DNA from: Paenibacillaceae bacterium
GTDB taxonomy: Bacteria; Bacillota; Bacilli; Paenibacillales; JAWLCZ01
NCBI GenBank assembly: GCA_041686835.1
Contig: JAWLCZ010000040.1
Coordinates: 1 to 24,000 of the forward strand
Direction of reading: 5' to 3'
Length of the DNA: 24,000 nucleotides
The notes under the pieces: model-generated
What the model was told of the DNA's origin: nothing
The model's input: only the letters and a program-made list of their open reading frames with translations
Databases searched by the model: none
Translations under genes and position numbers: made by a program
Part shown: piece after piece, positions 1 through 7,823 of the stretch
Layout of the letters: each line of letters begins with the position of its first letter
Numbering within the stretch: the first letter of the stretch is position 1

Positions 1-467
1 TCCATTTGCCGGAAGATCATTTCCACTCCTTCGGAAAAAGAGTCGAAATCTTTATTGTCCCTGCTGGCGGAAATCGCCCGTTCGAAATTGTCCATGACGG
101 GCAGCAGCCGCTCAAGCAGCTTCATGGAAGCGTATTTGGCAAACTCCTCTTTTTCCTGGCGCGTGCGGCGGCGGAAGTTTTCGAAGTCGGCTTGAACCCT
201 GAGATATCGCTGGTAATGTTCGTCCGCCTGCTTGCGCAGTTGTTCCAGCTGATCCTCCGGGCCGGCAGCGGCGGTATCCTGCTCCTCTCCGCTTTCATCG
301 TTTCCGGTCGGCTGTTCCGTACTGCTGTCCGCCGTTTGTTCGCCGTTTTCAGGATATGTAGCCTCTTCGTTCTCCGCCGCGGACGGTTGTTCGGTTTGCT
401 GCTCTTGTTCCTCGTTTGCCTCGTTTACCGCTTTGGATTCGACCGCTTCCTTGTCCGTGTGGTCCAT
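1..467 (-). CDS. grpE: Nucleotide exchange factor GrpE (partial; C-terminus lies beyond the left edge)
   Basis: Absent from the ORF track because it runs off the window. Reverse translation from ATG (467..465) gives MDHTDKEAVESK...EDQLEQLRKQADEHYQRYLRVQADFENFRRRTRQEKEEFAKYASMKLLERLLPVMDNFERAI..., which carries the GrpE LRxxADFxNxRRR signature after an acidic low-complexity N-terminus. RBS AAGGAGGTGA (473..482) lies 5 nt upstream. It occupies the canonical position downstream of hrcA. Confidence 0.9.
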   Translation of the reverse strand, partial: MDHTDKEAVESKAVNEANEEQEQQTEQPSAAENEEATYPENGEQTADSSTEQPTGNDESGEEQDTAAAGPEDQLEQLRKQADEHYQRYLRVQADFENFRRRTRQEKEEFAKYASMKLLERLLPVMDNFERAISASRDNKDFDSFSEGVEMIFRQM

Positions 468-589
468 TCCTGTCACCTCCTTAATATTTGCAAACCGTTC
501 TCCTTGTTTCGATAGGAATATGCAGGCCGGTGAAAATGCGTGTTAACAGTTTTCCCAGCAGATCAGCATCATAAGCATCCACCGGAACG

Positions 590-2125
590 TTAAGCGTCAT
601 CCGGCTTCATCTTAATGACGCTGTGAATGCGCAGCACCGCGCAGGCCACTTCGCCGGCCGCTTGAAGCGCGTGCGCTTTGACGATGGCCGGATCCGCGAT
701 TCCGTTCCGCAAGCAATCGGTCAATGCCCCGGTGTCGCAGTCGATGCCGATGGCGTCGGAACCTTCGGCAATTTGCGCCGCCCGGACTTCCTCGACCTTT
801 TCCAGCGGATTGAAGCCCGCGTTCACGACGATTTGCGCTAGCGGTTTGCGCAGCGCTTGAGCGACCGCGGCAATGCCGAACCCTTCCATTCCTTTCACGG
901 TTTCCCTGTACCGTTCCAGTTCATGGGCAACGGCGATTTCCACAGCGCCGCCGCCGGGCAAATAACCGCCGCGAACCGCCGCCTGCACGGCCGCAGCCGC
1001 ATCTTTGGCGATTCGGGCCCGTTCTCCGACAACCTCTGCCGTCGCCGCTCCGACGACCACCGTAACGACCGGTTTCCCGCTGCCGCCGGCAAGGCGCACC
1101 CGTTCCAGCTTCGGATCGTAGTACACTTCCTCTGCGCGGCCGAGACAGGACGCGAGTTCCTCGGCGGATTTGTTCAGAGCCATTCGTTTGAGCGGCCTCG
1201 CGCCGGTAAATTCGCAAATGCTTTGCACATCCCGGCGCAGCGCCCTCCGGATGAGCATAATTCCGTGATCGGCGCAAAACTGCTCCGCTTCCGGGGCGGC
1301 TCCCCGCTCAACGACAATAAGCCCTACTCCGATGGAAACGAGCTTTTCCAACTGGGCTTTAAACTGTTGTTTCAATCCGATATATTGAGCGAACCCGGCC
1401 TCGGTCGCCAGCGCTTCCTCATCGAGCGTTTCCGGCTCCAGCGCGTCCTGAACGACAAGAACGGCCGTTCCGCGCGCAGCCGTTTCCGCGTGCGCTTCAA
1501 GCGGCTTGCCGCCGATGAAAATGCCGGGCCACACTTCGTTTGCCGCTTTTTCATGAGCGAAAACCGTATCGGCGAAACGAAACTCGTCATCGAGCAAATG
1601 CCGGGTGCCGAGCCTTTCCGCCGCAGTGATGACTAATTCCGCGATATCGCGCTGCTCCCGACCGGCAATAAGGGCAATCCGCCGCAGCATCGGGTCGTCC
1701 AGCCCCTCAATCGGGCGGGCGCGCGACGTAAGTCCGGCGATGGCGCGTTCGATGCCGTCCCGGATGCCGTGAACGATTTTCGCCGCCGGCACGCCGCGGG
1801 TGACGTGCGCCGCCCCTTCGCTTACCAGGGCGCCGGCAAGCACCGTCGCCGTTGTCGTGCCGTCCCCCACGCGGCTTTGCTGGGAGCGGGCGACCTGGAT
1901 CAGCAGCCGGGCGGCGGGATGCGACACGTCCATTTTATCCAGAATGGTCACTCCGTCGTTCGTGATGATGACGTCCCCTCGCGCTCCGACGAGCATGGCG
2001 TCAAGGCCTTTCGGCCCGAGCGTGCCTTCCACGGCCGAACATACCGCGCGTATCGCGGCGGCGTTGTTGAGCAGCGTCGAGTAGCGTTCTTCCCCTTCCA
2101 TATTCCCTTGCTTCGTTTGGCTCAT
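590..2125 (-). CDS. Thermosome-like chaperonin (Cpn60/TCP-1 family, archaeal-type group II/III), 511 aa
   Basis: ORF-track protein MSQTKQGNMEGEERYSTLLNNAAAIRAVCSAVEGTLGPKGLDAMLV...ITNDGVTILDKMDVSHPAARLLIQVARSQQSRVGDGTTTATVLAGAL...LPGGGAVEIAVA. The motifs GPKG(L/M)D, ITNDG(A/V)TIL, HPAA and GDGTTT fit thermosome/CCT-type rather than GroEL-type chaperonins; xGGGAxE is the shared chaperonin ATP-site motif. ATG at 2125 and TAA at 590. The gene lies 51 nt downstream of the hrcA stop and 122 nt upstream of the grpE start. Confidence 0.9.
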   Translation of the reverse strand: MSQTKQGNMEGEERYSTLLNNAAAIRAVCSAVEGTLGPKGLDAMLVGARGDVIITNDGVTILDKMDVSHPAARLLIQVARSQQSRVGDGTTTATVLAGALVSEGAAHVTRGVPAAKIVHGIRDGIERAIAGLTSRARPIEGLDDPMLRRIALIAGREQRDIAELVITAAERLGTRHLLDDEFRFADTVFAHEKAANEVWPGIFIGGKPLEAHAETAARGTAVLVVQDALEPETLDEEALATEAGFAQYIGLKQQFKAQLEKLVSIGVGLIVVERGAAPEAEQFCADHGIMLIRRALRRDVQSICEFTGARPLKRMALNKSAEELASCLGRAEEVYYDPKLERVRLAGGSGKPVVTVVVGAATAEVVGERARIAKDAAAAVQAAVRGGYLPGGGAVEIAVAHELERYRETVKGMEGFGIAAVAQALRKPLAQIVVNAGFNPLEKVEEVRAAQIAEGSDAIGIDCDTGALTDCLRNGIADPAIVKAHALQAAGEVACAVLRIHSVIKMKPDDA

Positions 2126-2176
2126 GAAATGGCTAATCCTCTCCGTTATGAGTTGAGATAAAACGAGACCCGCCGC

Positions 2177-3202
2177 TTACTTGTACCAGCGCGCGAACAT
2201 AACGGCCAAATCTTTGGACAAATGATCGAGCAGGCTGATCACTTTGCCGTATTCCATCCGGGTCGGTCCGAGAATGCCGATCGTTCCGAGCGACTGGCCT
2301 TCAATCGAATAGGTCGCGGTAATCAGGCTGCAGTTGCTAATCGCATCCACACTGTTCTCCGTGCCGATTTTGACCTGGATGCCTTCGGGCATGGAACTGA
2401 ACAGCCGCATCAGCGTATGCGTTTCGTCAAACAGATCGAGGATGGATTTCACTTTCTCCACATCCCTGAATTCCGGCTGGATCAGCATATTGGACGTACC
2501 GCTCAGGAAAATGCGGTTATCGTCGTCGTTTTCGAACACGGATTCGATCATGCGGATCAATTCTTCATATCTGGACACATATTTGCTCAGTTCCGATCCG
2601 ATTTCGTTGTACAGCTTCGATCTCAGTTGGAAAAGCGGTACGCCGACCAGCTTCGCGTTCAGGATCGACACCACTTTCTCGATTTCCGAAATCGGGATGC
2701 CTTCGGGAATCGTCACCACTTTGTTTTCCACGTGTCCGGTGTTCGTCACGATGATCGCTACGGCGGATTCATCGTTCAAAGGGACGAGCTGCATATGCTT
2801 CAGCGTAGCGCTGAACACTTCGGGACCGAGCACGATCGACGTATAGTTGGTCAAATTGGACAAAATCGTCGCCGCTTGCTGAATGACCTGCTCGGTTTCC
2901 TGAATTTTCTCGGCAAAGAAAGACTTGAGCACTTCCAGCTCATGTCTGGACAAATCTTCCAATTTGATGAGATGATCGACATAATACCTGTAGCCTTTAT
3001 GAGAAGGAATGCGGCCGGCAGACGTATGCGGCTGCTCCAAAAAACCCATCTCCTCCAGATCGGACATCTCGTTGCGGATCGTTGCCGGGCTGAACCCGAT
3101 GTCTCCGCGCTTCGATATCGTTCTGGAACCTACAGGCTCGGCTGAACGGATATAGTCGTCAACGATAATGCTCAATATCATTTTCTGGCGTTGCGTAAGC
3201 AT
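2177..3202 (-). CDS. hrcA: Heat-inducible transcription repressor HrcA (341 aa)
   Basis: MLTQRQKMILSIIVDDYIRSAEPVGSRTISKR... is a typical HrcA N-terminal winged-helix domain. The track ORF (to 3349) has a 49-aa extension; I trimmed it to ATG 3202, which is preceded by CCGGAGGATAATT (GGAGG RBS). A CIRCE operator lies upstream. Confidence 0.95.
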   Translation of the reverse strand: MLTQRQKMILSIIVDDYIRSAEPVGSRTISKRGDIGFSPATIRNEMSDLEEMGFLEQPHTSAGRIPSHKGYRYYVDHLIKLEDLSRHELEVLKSFFAEKIQETEQVIQQAATILSNLTNYTSIVLGPEVFSATLKHMQLVPLNDESAVAIIVTNTGHVENKVVTIPEGIPISEIEKVVSILNAKLVGVPLFQLRSKLYNEIGSELSKYVSRYEELIRMIESVFENDDDNRIFLSGTSNMLIQPEFRDVEKVKSILDLFDETHTLMRLFSSMPEGIQVKIGTENSVDAISNCSLITATYSIEGQSLGTIGILGPTRMEYGKVISLLDHLSKDLAVMFARWYK

Positions 3203-3358
3203 AATTATCCTCCGGAAAGGCATGAAGCCGCGAAGGCGCAGCTTATGCCGAACATCGAGTTTTACGGACGGGGCTTTGCTCCGTCCGGCACAAATCCCGC
3301 CGCAAAGACGGGACTTTACCCGGATCGGGCTTCCGGGACAAAAATCCATCGAAAGTGA

Positions 3359-3385
3359 TTAGCACTCGGATTAAATGAGTGCTAA
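3359..3385 (-). promoter_or_regulatory. CIRCE operator (HrcA binding site), perfect consensus
   Basis: TTAGCACTC (3359-3367), a 9-nt spacer GGATTAAAT, then GAGTGCTAA (3377-3385). This matches the TTAGCACTC-N9-GAGTGCTAA consensus exactly and lies immediately downstream of the candidate promoter. Confidence 0.95.
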
Positions 3386-3396
3386 CCATCAATACA

Positions 3397-3426
3397 AAAA
3401 TATCAGACCGGAACGCTTGTTGTCAA
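3397..3426 (-). promoter_or_regulatory. Candidate sigmaA promoter of the hrcA-chaperonin-grpE operon
   Basis: On the minus strand: TTGACA (3426..3421), an 18-nt spacer, then TGaTATTTT (extended -10; hexamer 3402..3397). The predicted TSS falls at the edge of CIRCE, the usual arrangement for CIRCE-controlled operons. Confidence 0.5.
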
Positions 3427-3427
3427 G

Positions 3428-3898
3428 TCAATCCAGTCTTTTCAACACGGCAATTTCGTCGCAGCAGTGCTGCTTTTTGCAGTGAATGCAGTCGATCCAC
3501 ACCTTTTCGGGGAATATTTCCTTGGGAACGACGGTAAATCCGTTTTTCTGGAAGAAAGCGACCTCATAGGTGAGCGCCATCACTTTCGGAACGCCCATTT
3601 CTTTGGCTTCTTCCACCAAAAAGTCGACAAGCTTCCGCCCGATCCCGGCCCCTTTGTATTGTTCCGTCACGCCAAGGGAACGGATTTCCACCAAATCCTG
3701 CCCGAGCCGGCACAGCGAACCGCAGCCGACAACGACGCCTTCCACCTCGGCCACGACGAAGCTTCCGATTTGCGCCGAGAGCGCCTCCCGCGTTCTCGGC
3801 AGCATAATGCCTTTTTCCGCATAGTGTTGAATAATCGCAAACAAAGAATCGACGTCGGACGCCGCCGCTTTTCTGCAAGTGGCCGTCACTGTGCCCAT
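3428..3898 (-). CDS. GNAT-family N-acetyltransferase (156 aa)
   Basis: MGTVTATCRKAAASDVDSLFAIIQHYAEKG...LGVTEQYKGAGIGRKLVDFLVEEAK contains the GNAT motif A (Q/RxxGxG/A). The track ORF was trimmed to ATG 3898 (M24), which follows a GGGTGGGA RBS. Confidence 0.85.
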   Translation of the reverse strand: MGTVTATCRKAAASDVDSLFAIIQHYAEKGIMLPRTREALSAQIGSFVVAEVEGVVVGCGSLCRLGQDLVEIRSLGVTEQYKGAGIGRKLVDFLVEEAKEMGVPKVMALTYEVAFFQKNGFTVVPKEIFPEKVWIDCIHCKKQHCCDEIAVLKRLD

Positions 3899-5274: not shown

Positions 5275-6182
5275 CTACTCGTCCGCCAGCCACCGCCTGA
5301 TAGAGGCAAGGAGCCGCTTCTCGGCTTCCGCATCGCCGCTTTTCCGGCAAAAACCGATGAAGTCCGCGGCGAAAATAACGGAATACACGTTCACTATGTT
5401 TCTCTCCCGCTCCGACAAGCCGAAACAGCGGCACAGCTCATCAATGTAAAACAGCGCATTCTCGTTCACGTCACAAACGACGGCGGTTTGCGTCAGCGCA
5501 ATCATATATAAAGGATCGCCGTAACATACGCAGTCGAAATCGATGATCCCCTCCAGCTTGCCGTTTCGGATGATGACGTTTTTCGTCGTCACGTCGTCGA
5601 GGAAACAGACCGGTTCGATCCGGTCAAAATACGGCTGCAGCTGCGAAAGCTTCCGATCCAAACGCCCGATGTCTTCTGCGGTCAGGCTGCCCTGCGCGTT
5701 GGCGACGCTGTTTTTCCTGTTTTCGGCCACCAGGTCTCCCCACGTCCGATACGGGCCGGGTTCATCGTTGATCGGCACCCAACCGTATCCGGCGCCTTTC
5801 GGCAATTCGGCTACCTTGCGTTGAAACGCCGCAATTTGTTCGGCTACGGCCGTCATCTGCTCCCGGGTCATGCTGCCGAGCTCGTAGCCCAGATCGCGGC
5901 CGGGAATTTTTTCAAGCATCATGTAGTCAAAAGGAACCCGCCGTCTGCTCAAGTCGGAAAAAATGACGCGGGGAACGGGAAGCCCGAGCTCCGCCAATAT
6001 GGATATATTTTTAACCGTCGCTTCATGACGTGCGGATTCTCGTTCGCCCGCACGATGATCTCTTTGTCCGGCAGAACGACATTATAGACGGTATTCGCGT
6101 GTCCGTAAGTCATCCTCTCCATGTGAAGAGGCTTTTCCCCCATAATTTCAACGACCCGTTGTTCGATTTGTTCCACGTTCAT
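5275..6182 (-). pseudogene. APH/choline-kinase-family phosphotransferase, split by a frameshift
   Basis: Two overlapping minus-strand ORFs in different frames (5949..6194 and 5275..5997) together resemble one ~300-aa phosphotransferase. The N-terminal part is MNVEQIEQRVVEIMGEKPLHMERMTYGHANTVYNVVLPDKEIIVRANENPHV. The C-terminal part is ATVKNISILAELGLPVPRVI...VCFLDDVTTKNVIIRNGKLEGIIDFDCVCYGDP, which includes the Brenner-type and DFD motifs. Sensible sequence switches frame at about 6021-6031. Confidence 0.7.
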
Positions 6183-6308
6183 TCCGGCGTCCACTCTCCT
6201 TCGTATTGTACAATCATTATAGCGCCGATTCGCAAACGCGTAATAACTCCGGCGTCGGAACTTTTATTTATAGCCGTTTTTTCCGAAGCGGGCCGCGACG
6301 GCAGTGGG

Positions 6309-7265
6309 TTACGGACGGGGAAAATGTTTCCGCAGCCAGTCCGCGATCAACGCGATCAATCTTGAATCTATCGGCTGATCGAGGAGCGATTTGTACTCTT
6401 TTTTCAGCCCCAGCATCGTATGCGGTTTGGCGAATTTCCGCAAAATATGGTTCATCTGCGGGATGATGTGCCATTCCGCTTCGCCGTTTACCGCTTCGGC
6501 TATCACTTTGGCATGCTCCGGCTCCACTTGGATGTCGTTCGAACCGGTTACGGCTAACGTCGGGCACGTTACGCGGCGAAGATGCTCGAAGACGTCATAA
6601 TCGAAATATTCGCGGAACCATTTGGCGTTAACTTTCGCGCCTTTAATGCGGACCGTGTCCGTTGTCGTTCGCCGTATTTTTTCAAATACTTCGTCCGTTT
6701 GCTTTTTCGCCTTGTTCGGGATGTTTAACAGACGAACGAGAAAACCTTTGAAACCGGTTGACGCTTCGAGTTCCCGAATCGCCATTTCCCCTTGTCTGCG
6801 CAAAATCTCATCCATCGGACCCGCCGCTCCCGAAAGCAGGATAAGCCCCTGCACCGGGCGCCTGGAATGAACCGCCGGAGCGATGAAGCATCCTTCACTG
6901 TGTCCGAGGATGATGATGCGGCCGGCGTCGACTTCGGGACGGGATTGCAAAAACCGTACGCACGCTTCCGCGTCGTCGACCAAATCCCATAATCCGGTTT
7001 TGTAATAATCCCCGCCGCTTGCGTGCGTTCCTCTTTTGTCGTAGCGCAGCGTAACGAATCCGAGTTCGCTGATGCGGTGCGCCAATTGTTTGTAAAGGTT
7101 CATGTTCAGCCCGCCGCCGTTGCCGTCGCGGTCGCTCTTTCCCGTTCCGGGAACGATGAGCACGGCTGGGAACGGTTCCGCCTGCGCCGCCGGAACGGCG
7201 AGCGTTCCCGCAAGCGGATAAACGCTCTCGATCGTCACATGGATTTCTTTGAAACGTTCGTTCAT
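6309..7265 (-). CDS. Alpha/beta-fold hydrolase (318 aa)
   Basis: Nucleophile elbow GHSEG within ...RIIILGHSEGCFIAPAV. ATG at 7265. It starts 7 nt downstream of the regulator's stop codon, so co-transcription is likely. Confidence 0.85.
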   Translation of the reverse strand: MNERFKEIHVTIESVYPLAGTLAVPAAQAEPFPAVLIVPGTGKSDRDGNGGGLNMNLYKQLAHRISELGFVTLRYDKRGTHASGGDYYKTGLWDLVDDAEACVRFLQSRPEVDAGRIIILGHSEGCFIAPAVHSRRPVQGLILLSGAAGPMDEILRRQGEMAIRELEASTGFKGFLVRLLNIPNKAKKQTDEVFEKIRRTTTDTVRIKGAKVNAKWFREYFDYDVFEHLRRVTCPTLAVTGSNDIQVEPEHAKVIAEAVNGEAEWHIIPQMNHILRKFAKPHTMLGLKKEYKSLLDQPIDSRLIALIADWLRKHFPRP

Positions 7266-7271
7266 ATTCCT

Positions 7272-7823
7272 CTACCCCTTGTCCGGTTTACGATTTGCTT
7301 CCGGAACGATAATCGTGGCAATCGTTCGGCGCCTCCTGCCGGGAGCCGGACGGTTGGCCATCGCTTTTTGAAAAAGGGCCGCGAGCGATTGGATGAATTC
7401 AGAGAACTCCTCGTCATCGAGATACAAGACGGCCTGCCGGTAACCGCCTCCGTCCCTGGCAAGATCGATGCGATCCTGCTCCAAATAGGTTCCATATTCC
7501 CCCATCATCGTTGCCAAAAACGTCATAAAATAGCGCATATGATCTTCCCGGGTCGCCTGGCGCAAATCTTCCTCCGTCACGTTATCCGCTTGTTCCGCCA
7601 ACGCGTATACTCTTTCCACCGTTCCCCGTATTTGCTTTTGATCCACGACGGAGAGGAGTCCCGCCGCGGTCAATTTATTCAGATGCCTGTACATTGTCGC
7701 CTGAGGGACATCCGGCAGCAGTTCGGCCATTTGCTGAACGGTAAGACGCCTGCCCCCGGCCATCGTTTGAATGATGCGAATGCGAACCGGATGCAATATC
7801 AAATCGGCTTTGCTCAGTTTCAC
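7272..7823 (-). CDS. ArsR-like winged-helix transcriptional regulator (183 aa)
   Basis: N-terminus ...ILHPVRIRIIQTMAGGRRLTVQQMAELLPDVPQATMYRHLNKLTAAGLL is an ArsR/SmtB-type HTH. GTG start at 7823 with an AAGGGGA RBS. Confidence 0.8.
   Translation of the reverse strand: MKLSKADLILHPVRIRIIQTMAGGRRLTVQQMAELLPDVPQATMYRHLNKLTAAGLLSVVDQKQIRGTVERVYALAEQADNVTEEDLRQATREDHMRYFMTFLATMMGEYGTYLEQDRIDLARDGGGYRQAVLYLDDEEFSEFIQSLAALFQKAMANRPAPGRRRRTIATIIVPEANRKPDKG

Follow-up and report, generated by a model that had tools for sequence, protein, structure and literature searches.

Group III chaperonins and the bacterial dnaK operon

Group III chaperonins have as their prototype Ch-CPN of Carboxydothermus hydrogenoformans, a 16-mer that has a built-in lid and works independently of GroES. 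In Bacillus subtilis, the mRNA of the dnaK operon (hrcA-grpE-dnaK-dnaJ) is processed between hrcA and grpE, and in the model for this species GroEL keeps HrcA active, HrcA becoming inactive once GroEL is titrated away. Structural work on Ch-CPN has shown that Group III proteins lack the group II nucleotide-sensing loop, the γ-phosphate being contacted by Arg155 instead of a Lys, and that the two rings meet in a "ball-and-socket" arrangement in which Leu439 enters a groove formed by Lys109, Val111, Met411, and Tyr414 (An et al. 2017, PMC5635000). According to the same paper, Group III chaperonins are, "with one exception," encoded in the Hsp70 operon, an arrangement attributed to Techtmann and Robb (2010), whose account we follow as relayed in PMC5635000 and in the reviews PMC5220055 and PMC5904260. 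A 2018 review further describes Group III chaperonins as regulated by HrcA.

The presence of a thermosome-like chaperonin within a bacterial Hsp70 operon is interesting biology; the point dates from 2010, and structural papers and reviews have restated it since then. The chaperonin gene that we describe within a dnaK operon is therefore real but represents an already known, published hallmark of Group III, and the functional link to the Hsp70 machinery that was proposed for it in a first-pass annotation is a previously published hypothesis. The 24,000-nt stretch of Paenibacillaceae DNA analyzed here (the window) provides one more example from this family, in which promoter and operator are cleanly conserved, and does not represent a new type of system. 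For experimental work, any cultivable Paenibacillus species that has the operon would be easier to handle than Carboxydothermus.

Organization of the locus

Read along the minus strand, the locus consists of a σA-type promoter (3426 to 3397), a CIRCE operator (3385 to 3359), a 156-nt leader (3358 to 3203), hrcA (ATG at 3202, end of the stop codon at 2177), a 51-nt spacer (2176 to 2126), the chaperonin gene cpn (ATG at 2125, end of the stop codon at 590), a 122-nt spacer (589 to 468), and the first 155 codons of grpE (467 to 1, ATG at 467), which runs off the window edge. The first-pass annotation had placed a thermosome-like gene between hrcA and grpE on this strand, behind a candidate σA promoter and a perfect CIRCE at 3359 to 3385; all of its coordinates and its gene order were correct, the promoter scoring 10/12 in our scan and the CIRCE being unique in the window. 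The partial grpE was recognized by PF01025 (86 bits) and NF010738. The annotation had also presumed that dnaK follows grpE, and dnaK, which lies outside the window, indeed does so in every relative with DNA at that position, with dnaJ after dnaK in those relatives whose contigs reach so far.

The locus resembles the B. subtilis dnaK operon in its upstream genes (gpr, spoIIP, lepA, and hemN/hemW), in the succession of promoter, CIRCE, and hrcA, and in the grpE-dnaK-dnaJ order downstream, but it differs from hrcA-grpE-dnaK-dnaJ of that species by the 1.5-kb chaperonin gene inserted between hrcA and grpE and by a GNAT acetyltransferase gene between hemW and hrcA. With the Ch-CPN system it shares a chaperonin gene that is flanked by hrcA and grpE and preceded by a CIRCE, an arrangement that we confirmed in the congeneric C. 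pertinax (locus L083). However, the gaps flanking cpn are longer than in Carboxydothermus (51 and 122 nt versus 16 nt and a 17-nt overlap), a structured 156-nt leader separates CIRCE from hrcA, and the host is a spore-forming member of the Bacillales of Paenibacillaceae type (spoIIP, gpr, and gerP are in the window) rather than a Carboxydothermus-type thermophile. Archaeal thermosome genes, in contrast, are not known to lie inside an hrcA-grpE-dnaK operon of this kind.

The chaperonin belongs to Group III

The 511-residue product of cpn (PF00118, 349.7 bits) is a typical Group III, or bacterial thermosome-like, chaperonin. It matched the reconstructed Group III ancestor (PDB 9RWQ) with an E value of 5e-184 (615 bits) and the Ch-CPN structure 5X9U with an E value of 1.6e-126 (426 bits), compared with 4e-61 for the archaeal thermosome (210 bits for thermosome 1A6D) and about 150 to 180 bits for GroEL models, the latter under the NCBIfam GroEL cutoffs. 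Identity as an archaeal (group II) thermosome was rejected, the protein scoring only 268 bits with TIGR02339 (NCBIfam cutoff, 671) and 261 bits with NF041082 (cutoff, 450). In a neighbor-joining tree of 58 sequences, which was distance based and had no bootstrap, the protein was placed beside Paenibacillus proteins in a clade that also held the C. pertinax protein and that was separate from both group II and GroEL.

The likeness to Ch-CPN extends over the full length of the protein and is gap free through the lid and nucleotide-sensing-loop regions. In the latter, the segment IAGREQRDIA aligned without gaps with IAGRGDERVA of Ch-CPN, R156 corresponding to Arg155, whereas alignment with group II proteins (9RWP and 1A6D) required six gap positions (2 + 3 + 1) and placed R in place of K. 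Of the residues in the inter-ring contact, L441, V112, and M413 match L439, V111, and M411 of Ch-CPN, and the two substitutions in the socket (R110 for K109 and F416 for Y414) are conservative; across 25 diverse sequences of Group III, at least 90% keep Leu441. The lid region, which in Ch-CPN spans residues 223 to 263 and forms two helices, aligned without gaps with Ch-CPN and with gaps with group II, as judged from sequence alignment only. Archaeal group II chaperonins and eukaryotic CCT/TRiC resemble the protein in their membership of the PF00118 fold family, an identity of about 30%, a putative built-in helical lid region, and the expectation that GroES is not needed, but the window protein lacks their six-residue loop extension and its Lys and appears to have deletions in the lid region. 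Prefoldin is not known from bacteria.

Promoter, operator, and hrcA

The σA-type promoter begins one base past the stop codon of a GNAT gene lying upstream and consists of a TTGACA −35 hexamer (3426 to 3421) and a TATTTT −10 hexamer (3402 to 3397) separated by an 18-nt spacer, which is closed by a TG at 3405 to 3404 (layout, TG-N-TATTTT). The operator, TTAGCACTC-N9-GAGTGCTAA, is a perfect CIRCE and a predicted HrcA binding site; allowing up to two mismatches gave no further match in the window, and 100 shuffled sequences gave none at all. It lies between the promoter and the first gene, starting 11 nt downstream of the −10 hexamer and about 5 to 7 nt past the inferred start of transcription. 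In an alignment of six Paenibacillaceae loci, both hexamers, the TG, and the CIRCE were invariant, and a perfect CIRCE was found at the same position in loci L001, L081, L082, L087, L088, L002, and L083.

The first gene encodes a heat-inducible transcriptional repressor, HrcA, of 341 residues (PF01628 and PF03444), which exceeded the cutoff of the TIGR00331 equivalog model (364 versus 197.2 bits) and is intact by its coverage of that model (residues 3 to 333); it is 65 to 75% identical to the HrcA proteins of the Paenibacillus loci. A GGAGG ribosome-binding site stands 6 nt ahead of the ATG at 3202. A longer open reading frame starting at 3349 was rejected because the alignment to homologues opens with residue 1 of the product that starts at 3202.

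Conservation of gene order and of the intergenic spacers

The comparison of hrcA-grpE intervals that had been proposed along with the first-pass annotation revealed 15 related loci that show hrcA-cpn-grpE-dnaK-dnaJ in this order, or as many of these genes as the contig retains: those of P. thalictri, P. hamazuiensis, and P. thiaminolyticus, six Paenibacillaceae-like metagenomic contigs, two Peptococcaceae MAGs, a Bacillota MAG, C. pertinax, and two additional distant lineages. One stand-alone chaperonin gene was found as an exception. The hrcA stop codon overlaps the cpn start codon in loci L001, L081, and L085, as ATGA in P. thalictri and P. hamazuiensis and likewise by 4 nt in L085, and the two genes are 10 to 20 nt apart in several other lineages; cpn likewise shares bases with grpE in C. 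pertinax (L083), L085, and L091, and in Carboxydothermus and the other distant lineages this pair of genes either overlaps or lies almost end to end. Overlaps at both junctions imply a single transcript and translational coupling in these relatives, and the overlap or close spacing of hrcA and cpn argues for coupled expression as the ancestral, conserved state.

The spacers on either side of cpn vary in length, from −4 to 58 nt between hrcA and cpn across the relatives and from 44 to 157 nt between cpn and grpE across the Paenibacillaceae loci, and neither is conserved in sequence beyond the ribosome-binding site, which in the window is GGAGAGGA at 2144 to 2137 ahead of cpn and AGGAGGTGA at 481 to 473 ahead of grpE. 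The claim that both gaps lack a terminator and a convincing promoter held up on closer analysis. The 51-nt spacer contains neither a terminator nor a promoter-like site, and its folding is no stabler than that of shuffled sequence (z = −0.08); the 122-nt spacer likewise has no terminator and no excess stability over shuffles (z = −0.14), and its one weak promoter-like match (TTAACA-18-CATATT at 546 to 517, 9/12) is not conserved.

Regulation of the chaperonin gene

Based on the deeply conserved gene order, promoter, and operator, we consider it very probable that the Group III chaperonin gene belongs to a class I heat shock dnaK operon with one σA promoter, repression by HrcA at CIRCE, and joint expression of its genes, cpn being most likely cotranscribed with grpE-dnaK. 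The single promoter would drive the whole operon, which HrcA bound to CIRCE, just past the transcription start, would repress at normal temperature; as unfolded proteins build up, HrcA activity would be lost and the operon derepressed, and the chaperonin would then be produced alongside HrcA, GrpE, and DnaK. The first-pass annotation had likewise seen the chaperonin as being under HrcA control and expressed with the DnaK system, a view that the comparative evidence supports; cotranscription, heat induction, and HrcA control in this particular organism are what we infer from its sequence.

Transcription as one unit could be accompanied by unequal output, with processing or a second promoter in the cpn-grpE spacer leaving the chaperonin at low, HrcA-like levels while grpE-dnaK-dnaJ products are abundant, so that the chaperonin would be coregulated with Hsp70 in nonstoichiometric amounts. 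Extra, partly independent expression of grpE-dnaK-dnaJ, or a difference in mRNA stability, could be suspected from the length of the cpn-grpE gap, from the weak σA-like match within it, and from hairpins in the gap of some relatives. The spacer of the Paenibacillaceae loci contrasts with the overlapping or nearly abutting genes of Carboxydothermus and other distant lineages, hairpins stand straight after the cpn stop codon in loci L082, L086, and L088, and P. thalictri has a weak promoter-like match of its own beside the one in the window. The hrcA-proximal part of the B. subtilis dnaK-operon mRNA is reportedly cleaved off and degraded. However, the promoter-like matches occupy nonhomologous positions and are missing from six of eight loci, a canonical terminator is absent, the structure in the window gap does not exceed that of shuffles, and the gap sequences are unconserved apart from the ribosome-binding site, and we regard unequal output as a possibility of clearly lower probability than joint expression. 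Considerably less probable still is a separate promoter for cpn that lies within the 3′ portion of hrcA or the 51-nt spacer and is independent of CIRCE and HrcA (e.g., constitutive or served by an alternative sigma factor). This spacer is among the longest in the loci examined (only that of L093 is longer, at 58 nt) and would have room for a regulatory site, and our promoter scan covered σA-type consensus sites only; yet σA-like sites were absent in all eight loci from the spacer and from the final 250 nt of hrcA, the window spacer shows no significant structure, and the 4-nt overlap in three lineages and the close spacing in several others speak against a separate promoter.

The remaining reading, that cpn is a recent archaeal transfer or a decaying chance passenger without an integrated function, is effectively refuted by residue conservation, GC content at third codon positions (GC3), and the neighbor-joining tree. 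A foreign origin might be suspected from the overall GC content of cpn, which at 0.63 is above that of its neighbors (0.51 to 0.58), from its thermosome-like annotation, and from the fact that its best matches outside Group III are archaeal. However, the excess is located at codon positions 1 and 2 and is explained by a protein rich in Ala, Gly, Arg, and Pro, whereas GC3 (0.707) falls within the range of the neighboring genes (0.63 to 0.74), which indicates a long-resident gene and not a recent import. In addition, cpn is an intact gene in which the invariant nucleotide-binding residues are preserved (GDGTTT at 87 to 92, D375, and GGG at 391 to 393), it occupies the same position from Paenibacillus to Carboxydothermus, and its product falls into the bacterial Group III clade rather than into archaeal group II.

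Beyond joint expression with the DnaK system, one may speculate, following a question raised in the first-pass annotation, that in the bacteria that have it the Group III chaperonin takes part in the HrcA feedback loop, together with GroEL or in its place, by holding HrcA in its DNA-binding form or by taking it over from DnaK. In that case, the neighbor of hrcA would code for a modulator dedicated to the repressor. Stop-start overlap of hrcA and cpn, which is frequent, would fit a cotranslational pairing of both products, but simple coregulation with Hsp70 accounts just as well for a cpn gene lying between hrcA and grpE, our literature search found no paper on modulation of HrcA by a Group III chaperonin, and the sequence neither supports nor refutes such feedback, which we consider rather doubtful.

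A structured leader ahead of hrcA

The 156-nt leader that separates CIRCE from the ATG of hrcA is predicted to fold into four GC-rich hairpins, with a minimum free energy of −66.2 kcal/mol compared with −48.0 ± 3.8 kcal/mol for shuffles (z = −4.8). It had no match in Rfam and no second copy within the window, and the folding did not predict a temperature-dependent opening of the Shine-Dalgarno region of the kind expected of an RNA thermometer. The corresponding leaders of relatives are 18 to 46 nt long, except in P. thalictri, which carries an unrelated 150-nt insert. The leader is a lineage-specific insert and not a conserved element, and it is the only feature peculiar to this window.

Identity of the chaperonin

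The minus-strand gene at 2125-590 (cpn) encodes a chaperonin of 511 aa that matches PF00118 at 350 bits. The protein scores well short of a true archaeal thermosome (268 bits against a curated cutoff of 671), and its top matches among solved structures were 9RWQ (5e-184) and 5X9U/5X9V (1.6e-126), with archaeal thermosomes next at ~1e-61. The 5X9U structure is that of Ch-CPN from Carboxydothermus hydrogenoformans, the prototype of Group III (PMC5635000). The molecule name of 9RWQ in the PDB is 'Ancestral Group II Chaperonin (ACII)', and the depositing paper describes it as ACIII, the Group III ancestor (PMC12696368); the strength of the match is consistent with the ACIII identity.

The structural signatures of Group III come from An et al. 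2017 (PMC5635000), and every one of them that is readable from sequence was present in a residue-level alignment of the window chaperonin. The catalytic Arg155 of Ch-CPN corresponds to R156, in a segment that aligns with no gaps to Ch-CPN but with six gap positions to group II proteins, which have at this point a longer nucleotide-sensing loop carrying a Lys. Leu439, the "ball" of Ch-CPN, corresponds to L441, and the socket residues R110, V112, M413, and F416 are the same as, or conservative swaps for, those of Ch-CPN. Without exception, 25 diverse members of the family share its nucleotide-binding residues (GDGTTT, D375, and GGG). In a neighbor-joining tree, the protein groups with Paenibacillus proteins, within a clade that holds the Carboxydothermus pertinax protein and is separate from group II and GroEL. 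More than 60 named Paenibacillus species have proteins 59 to 69% identical to it; the source is therefore a Paenibacillaceae bacterium without a very close sequenced relative. Among the matches of the representative search were two double-length proteins, P0153 (1057 aa), which matches the query in its C-terminal half alone (537-1042), and P0172 (1047 aa), for which the match covers the N-terminal half (18-502). Both have additional matched stretches and may represent tandem fusions of chaperonins.

Conserved position of cpn in the dnaK operon

The coordinates and gene order of the operon reported in the first-pass annotation, with cpn embedded between hrcA and grpE, proved correct to the base when rechecked. 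On the minus strand, hrcA extends from an ATG at 3202, preceded by GGAGG, to its stop at 2177 (TIGR00331, 364 bits against a cutoff of 197). It is followed by a 51-nt spacer with a ribosome-binding site, GGAGAGGA, 5' of cpn, and then, after cpn, by a 122-nt spacer with a second one, AGGAGGTGA, 5' of grpE, whose ATG lies at 467 and which continues past the window edge. A longer hrcA open reading frame predicted from 3349 was rejected, because in six loci the homologous HrcA proteins line up with the 3202 start from their first residue.

The interval between hrcA and grpE had been proposed as a point of comparison among Paenibacillaceae genomes, and we compared 15 further Group III loci, with context taken from exact-protein contig look-ups. 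A contig scan with patterns generic to chaperonins (GDGTTT and GPKG.D) mainly picked up loci for GroEL and archaeal thermosomes, with only three Group III loci, and a metagenome scan with a single protein query gave three usable loci. All 15 loci have the order hrcA-cpn-grpE-dnaK(-dnaJ) or the portion of it left on the contig. The order runs through dnaJ in P. hamazuiensis (L081), P. thiaminolyticus (L082), C. pertinax (L083), and a distant uncultured lineage (L085); through dnaK in another such lineage (L091); and through grpE in P. thalictri (L001). One Peptococcaceae MAG (L090) has the full order and another (L002) has hrcA-cpn and then the contig end, a Bacillota MAG (L003) has cpn-grpE, and six Paenibacillaceae-like metagenomic contigs (L086, L087, L088, L092, L093, and L094) each retain a portion. 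Junctions are often tight: hrcA and cpn overlap (ATGA) in P. thalictri and P. hamazuiensis and are 17 nt apart in P. thiaminolyticus, cpn and grpE overlap by 17 nt in C. pertinax and also overlap in L091, and both junctions overlap in L085. In L085, GrpE (L085:6551-7744) is 397 aa long, ~2x the usual length, and its gene overlaps the chaperonin gene on one side and dnaK on the other. The stand-alone exception is P0142, a distant Group III-like chaperonin (37% identity) encoded outside any dnaK operon, where its neighbors are a Gp49/HTH toxin-antitoxin-like pair and a PD-(D/E)XK (Cas4-like) gene.

The GC content of cpn (0.63, against 0.51 to 0.58 in its neighbors) hinted at recent horizontal transfer. 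However, its third-position GC (0.707) is inside the neighbors' range (0.63 to 0.74), and the surplus comes from codon positions 1 and 2, a consequence of Gly, Ala, Arg, and Pro making up 37% of the chaperonin. The normal third-position GC and the conserved position together rule out recent transfer, and we give almost no credence to the idea that cpn reached this place by chance or by recent insertion, which has essentially no support.

The arrangement has been published: Conway de Macario et al. 2017 described Group III genes as "embedded in the DnaK/DnaJ operon". The feature is thus real, well formed, and soundly interpreted in the first-pass annotation, which rediscovered a hallmark of the Group III family. 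The same authors speculated that, without prefoldin, substrates are brought by DnaK, and An et al. 2017 suggested that the chaperonin lid may interact with DnaK (PMC5635000). Our literature search found nothing on expression of the Group III chaperonin gene in Paenibacillus and no paper addressing the possible modulation of HrcA by a Group III chaperonin, which the first-pass annotation had raised.

Promoter, CIRCE, and upstream edge

On the minus strand, a sigmaA-type promoter scoring 10/12 (-35 TTGACA at 3426-3421, an 18-nt spacer ending in TG, and -10 TATTTT at 3402-3397) precedes a perfect CIRCE, TTAGCACTC-N9-GAGTGCTAA, at 3385-3359. This CIRCE is the sole match in the window with two mismatches allowed, and none of 100 shuffles gave a match. 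Across the six Paenibacillaceae loci with a promoter region, the flanking bases vary, but the two hexamers, the TG, and the CIRCE arms do not change. Eight loci with upstream DNA were scanned for CIRCE; seven (L001, L002, L081, L082, L083, L087, and L088) have a perfect copy 5' of hrcA, and L085 has none.

A gene for a GNAT N-acetyltransferase of the PRK07757 type (minus strand, 3428-3898) lies between hemW and hrcA, and one base separates its stop codon (3430-3428) from the -35 hexamer of the operon. With no terminator between this gene and the hrcA promoter, read-through into the operon is possible. The GNAT gene is kept at the hemW-hrcA position in Paenibacillus loci L081, L082, and L092 and is absent in Carboxydothermus. 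Farther upstream, three extra minus-strand genes lie within 5275-7823, between lepA (9753-7939) and hemW (5231-4047), and encode an ArsR-type HTH regulator (7823-7272), an alpha/beta hydrolase (7265-6309), and an APH-family phosphotransferase (5997-5275). In P. hamazuiensis and P. thiaminolyticus the trio is missing and hemW comes directly after lepA.

One transcript or several

The simplest reading of the sequence is that the operon would be expressed as one transcript from the CIRCE-controlled promoter, an organization probably kept since the origin of the family. The first-pass annotation had seen neither a terminator nor a convincing promoter in the gaps, and this held up: no terminator-like site occurs in the hrcA-cpn or cpn-grpE spacer of the window, shuffled sequence folds as well as either spacer does (z = -0.08 and -0.14, respectively), and the sole promoter-like match within the operon of the window, a weak one (9/12), falls in the cpn-grpE spacer at 546-517. 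An independent promoter for cpn is highly improbable and finds little support, as none of eight loci had a sigmaA-like site in the spacer or the final 250 nt of hrcA. Weak 9/12 matches 5' of grpE occurred in two of the eight, at nonhomologous positions, and an internal sigmaA promoter was therefore rejected for both genes.

The window's spacers are longer than those of most relatives. We consider it rather unlikely, but the most credible refinement of the single-transcript reading is mRNA processing or a minor promoter within the long cpn-grpE spacer found in Paenibacillaceae, such that cpn would be coregulated with DnaK and less abundant. The dnaK-operon mRNA of B. subtilis is processed between hrcA and grpE, and processing here would parallel it. 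In three Paenibacillaceae loci, GC-rich hairpins without a canonical U-tract lie right after the chaperonin stop codon (L082:7584-7610, L086:1570-1610, and L088:6524-6595); these could be 3' stabilizers or processing sites dividing hrcA-cpn from grpE-dnaK-dnaJ.

A structured leader 5' of hrcA

The hrcA ribosome-binding site is set apart from CIRCE by a minus-strand leader of 156 nt (3358-3203), versus 18 to 46 nt in most relatives, with four predicted GC-rich hairpins (z = -4.8). From the ATG at 3349 the leader reads in frame with hrcA, probably by chance. An RNA thermometer or riboswitch was rejected as a conserved regulator: the leader had no Rfam match at E <= 1, the predicted accessibility of the Shine-Dalgarno sequence is near-flat (0.36 at 25 °C to 0.41 at 55 °C) and similar to that in short-leader relatives, and the leader is missing from most relatives, including L092, the nearest one with upstream DNA. 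A search for it as a possible repeated mobile element found no second copy within the 24-kb window. Our reading of the leader is that palindromic sequence was inserted here in one lineage, perhaps with an effect on mRNA stability. At this position P. thalictri has a 150-nt insert of unrelated sequence (L001:4829-4978), in which the palindrome GTTTTGC(C/T)TACGCAAAAC occurs twice, and small palindromic (REP-like) elements may land repeatedly at the site between CIRCE and hrcA.
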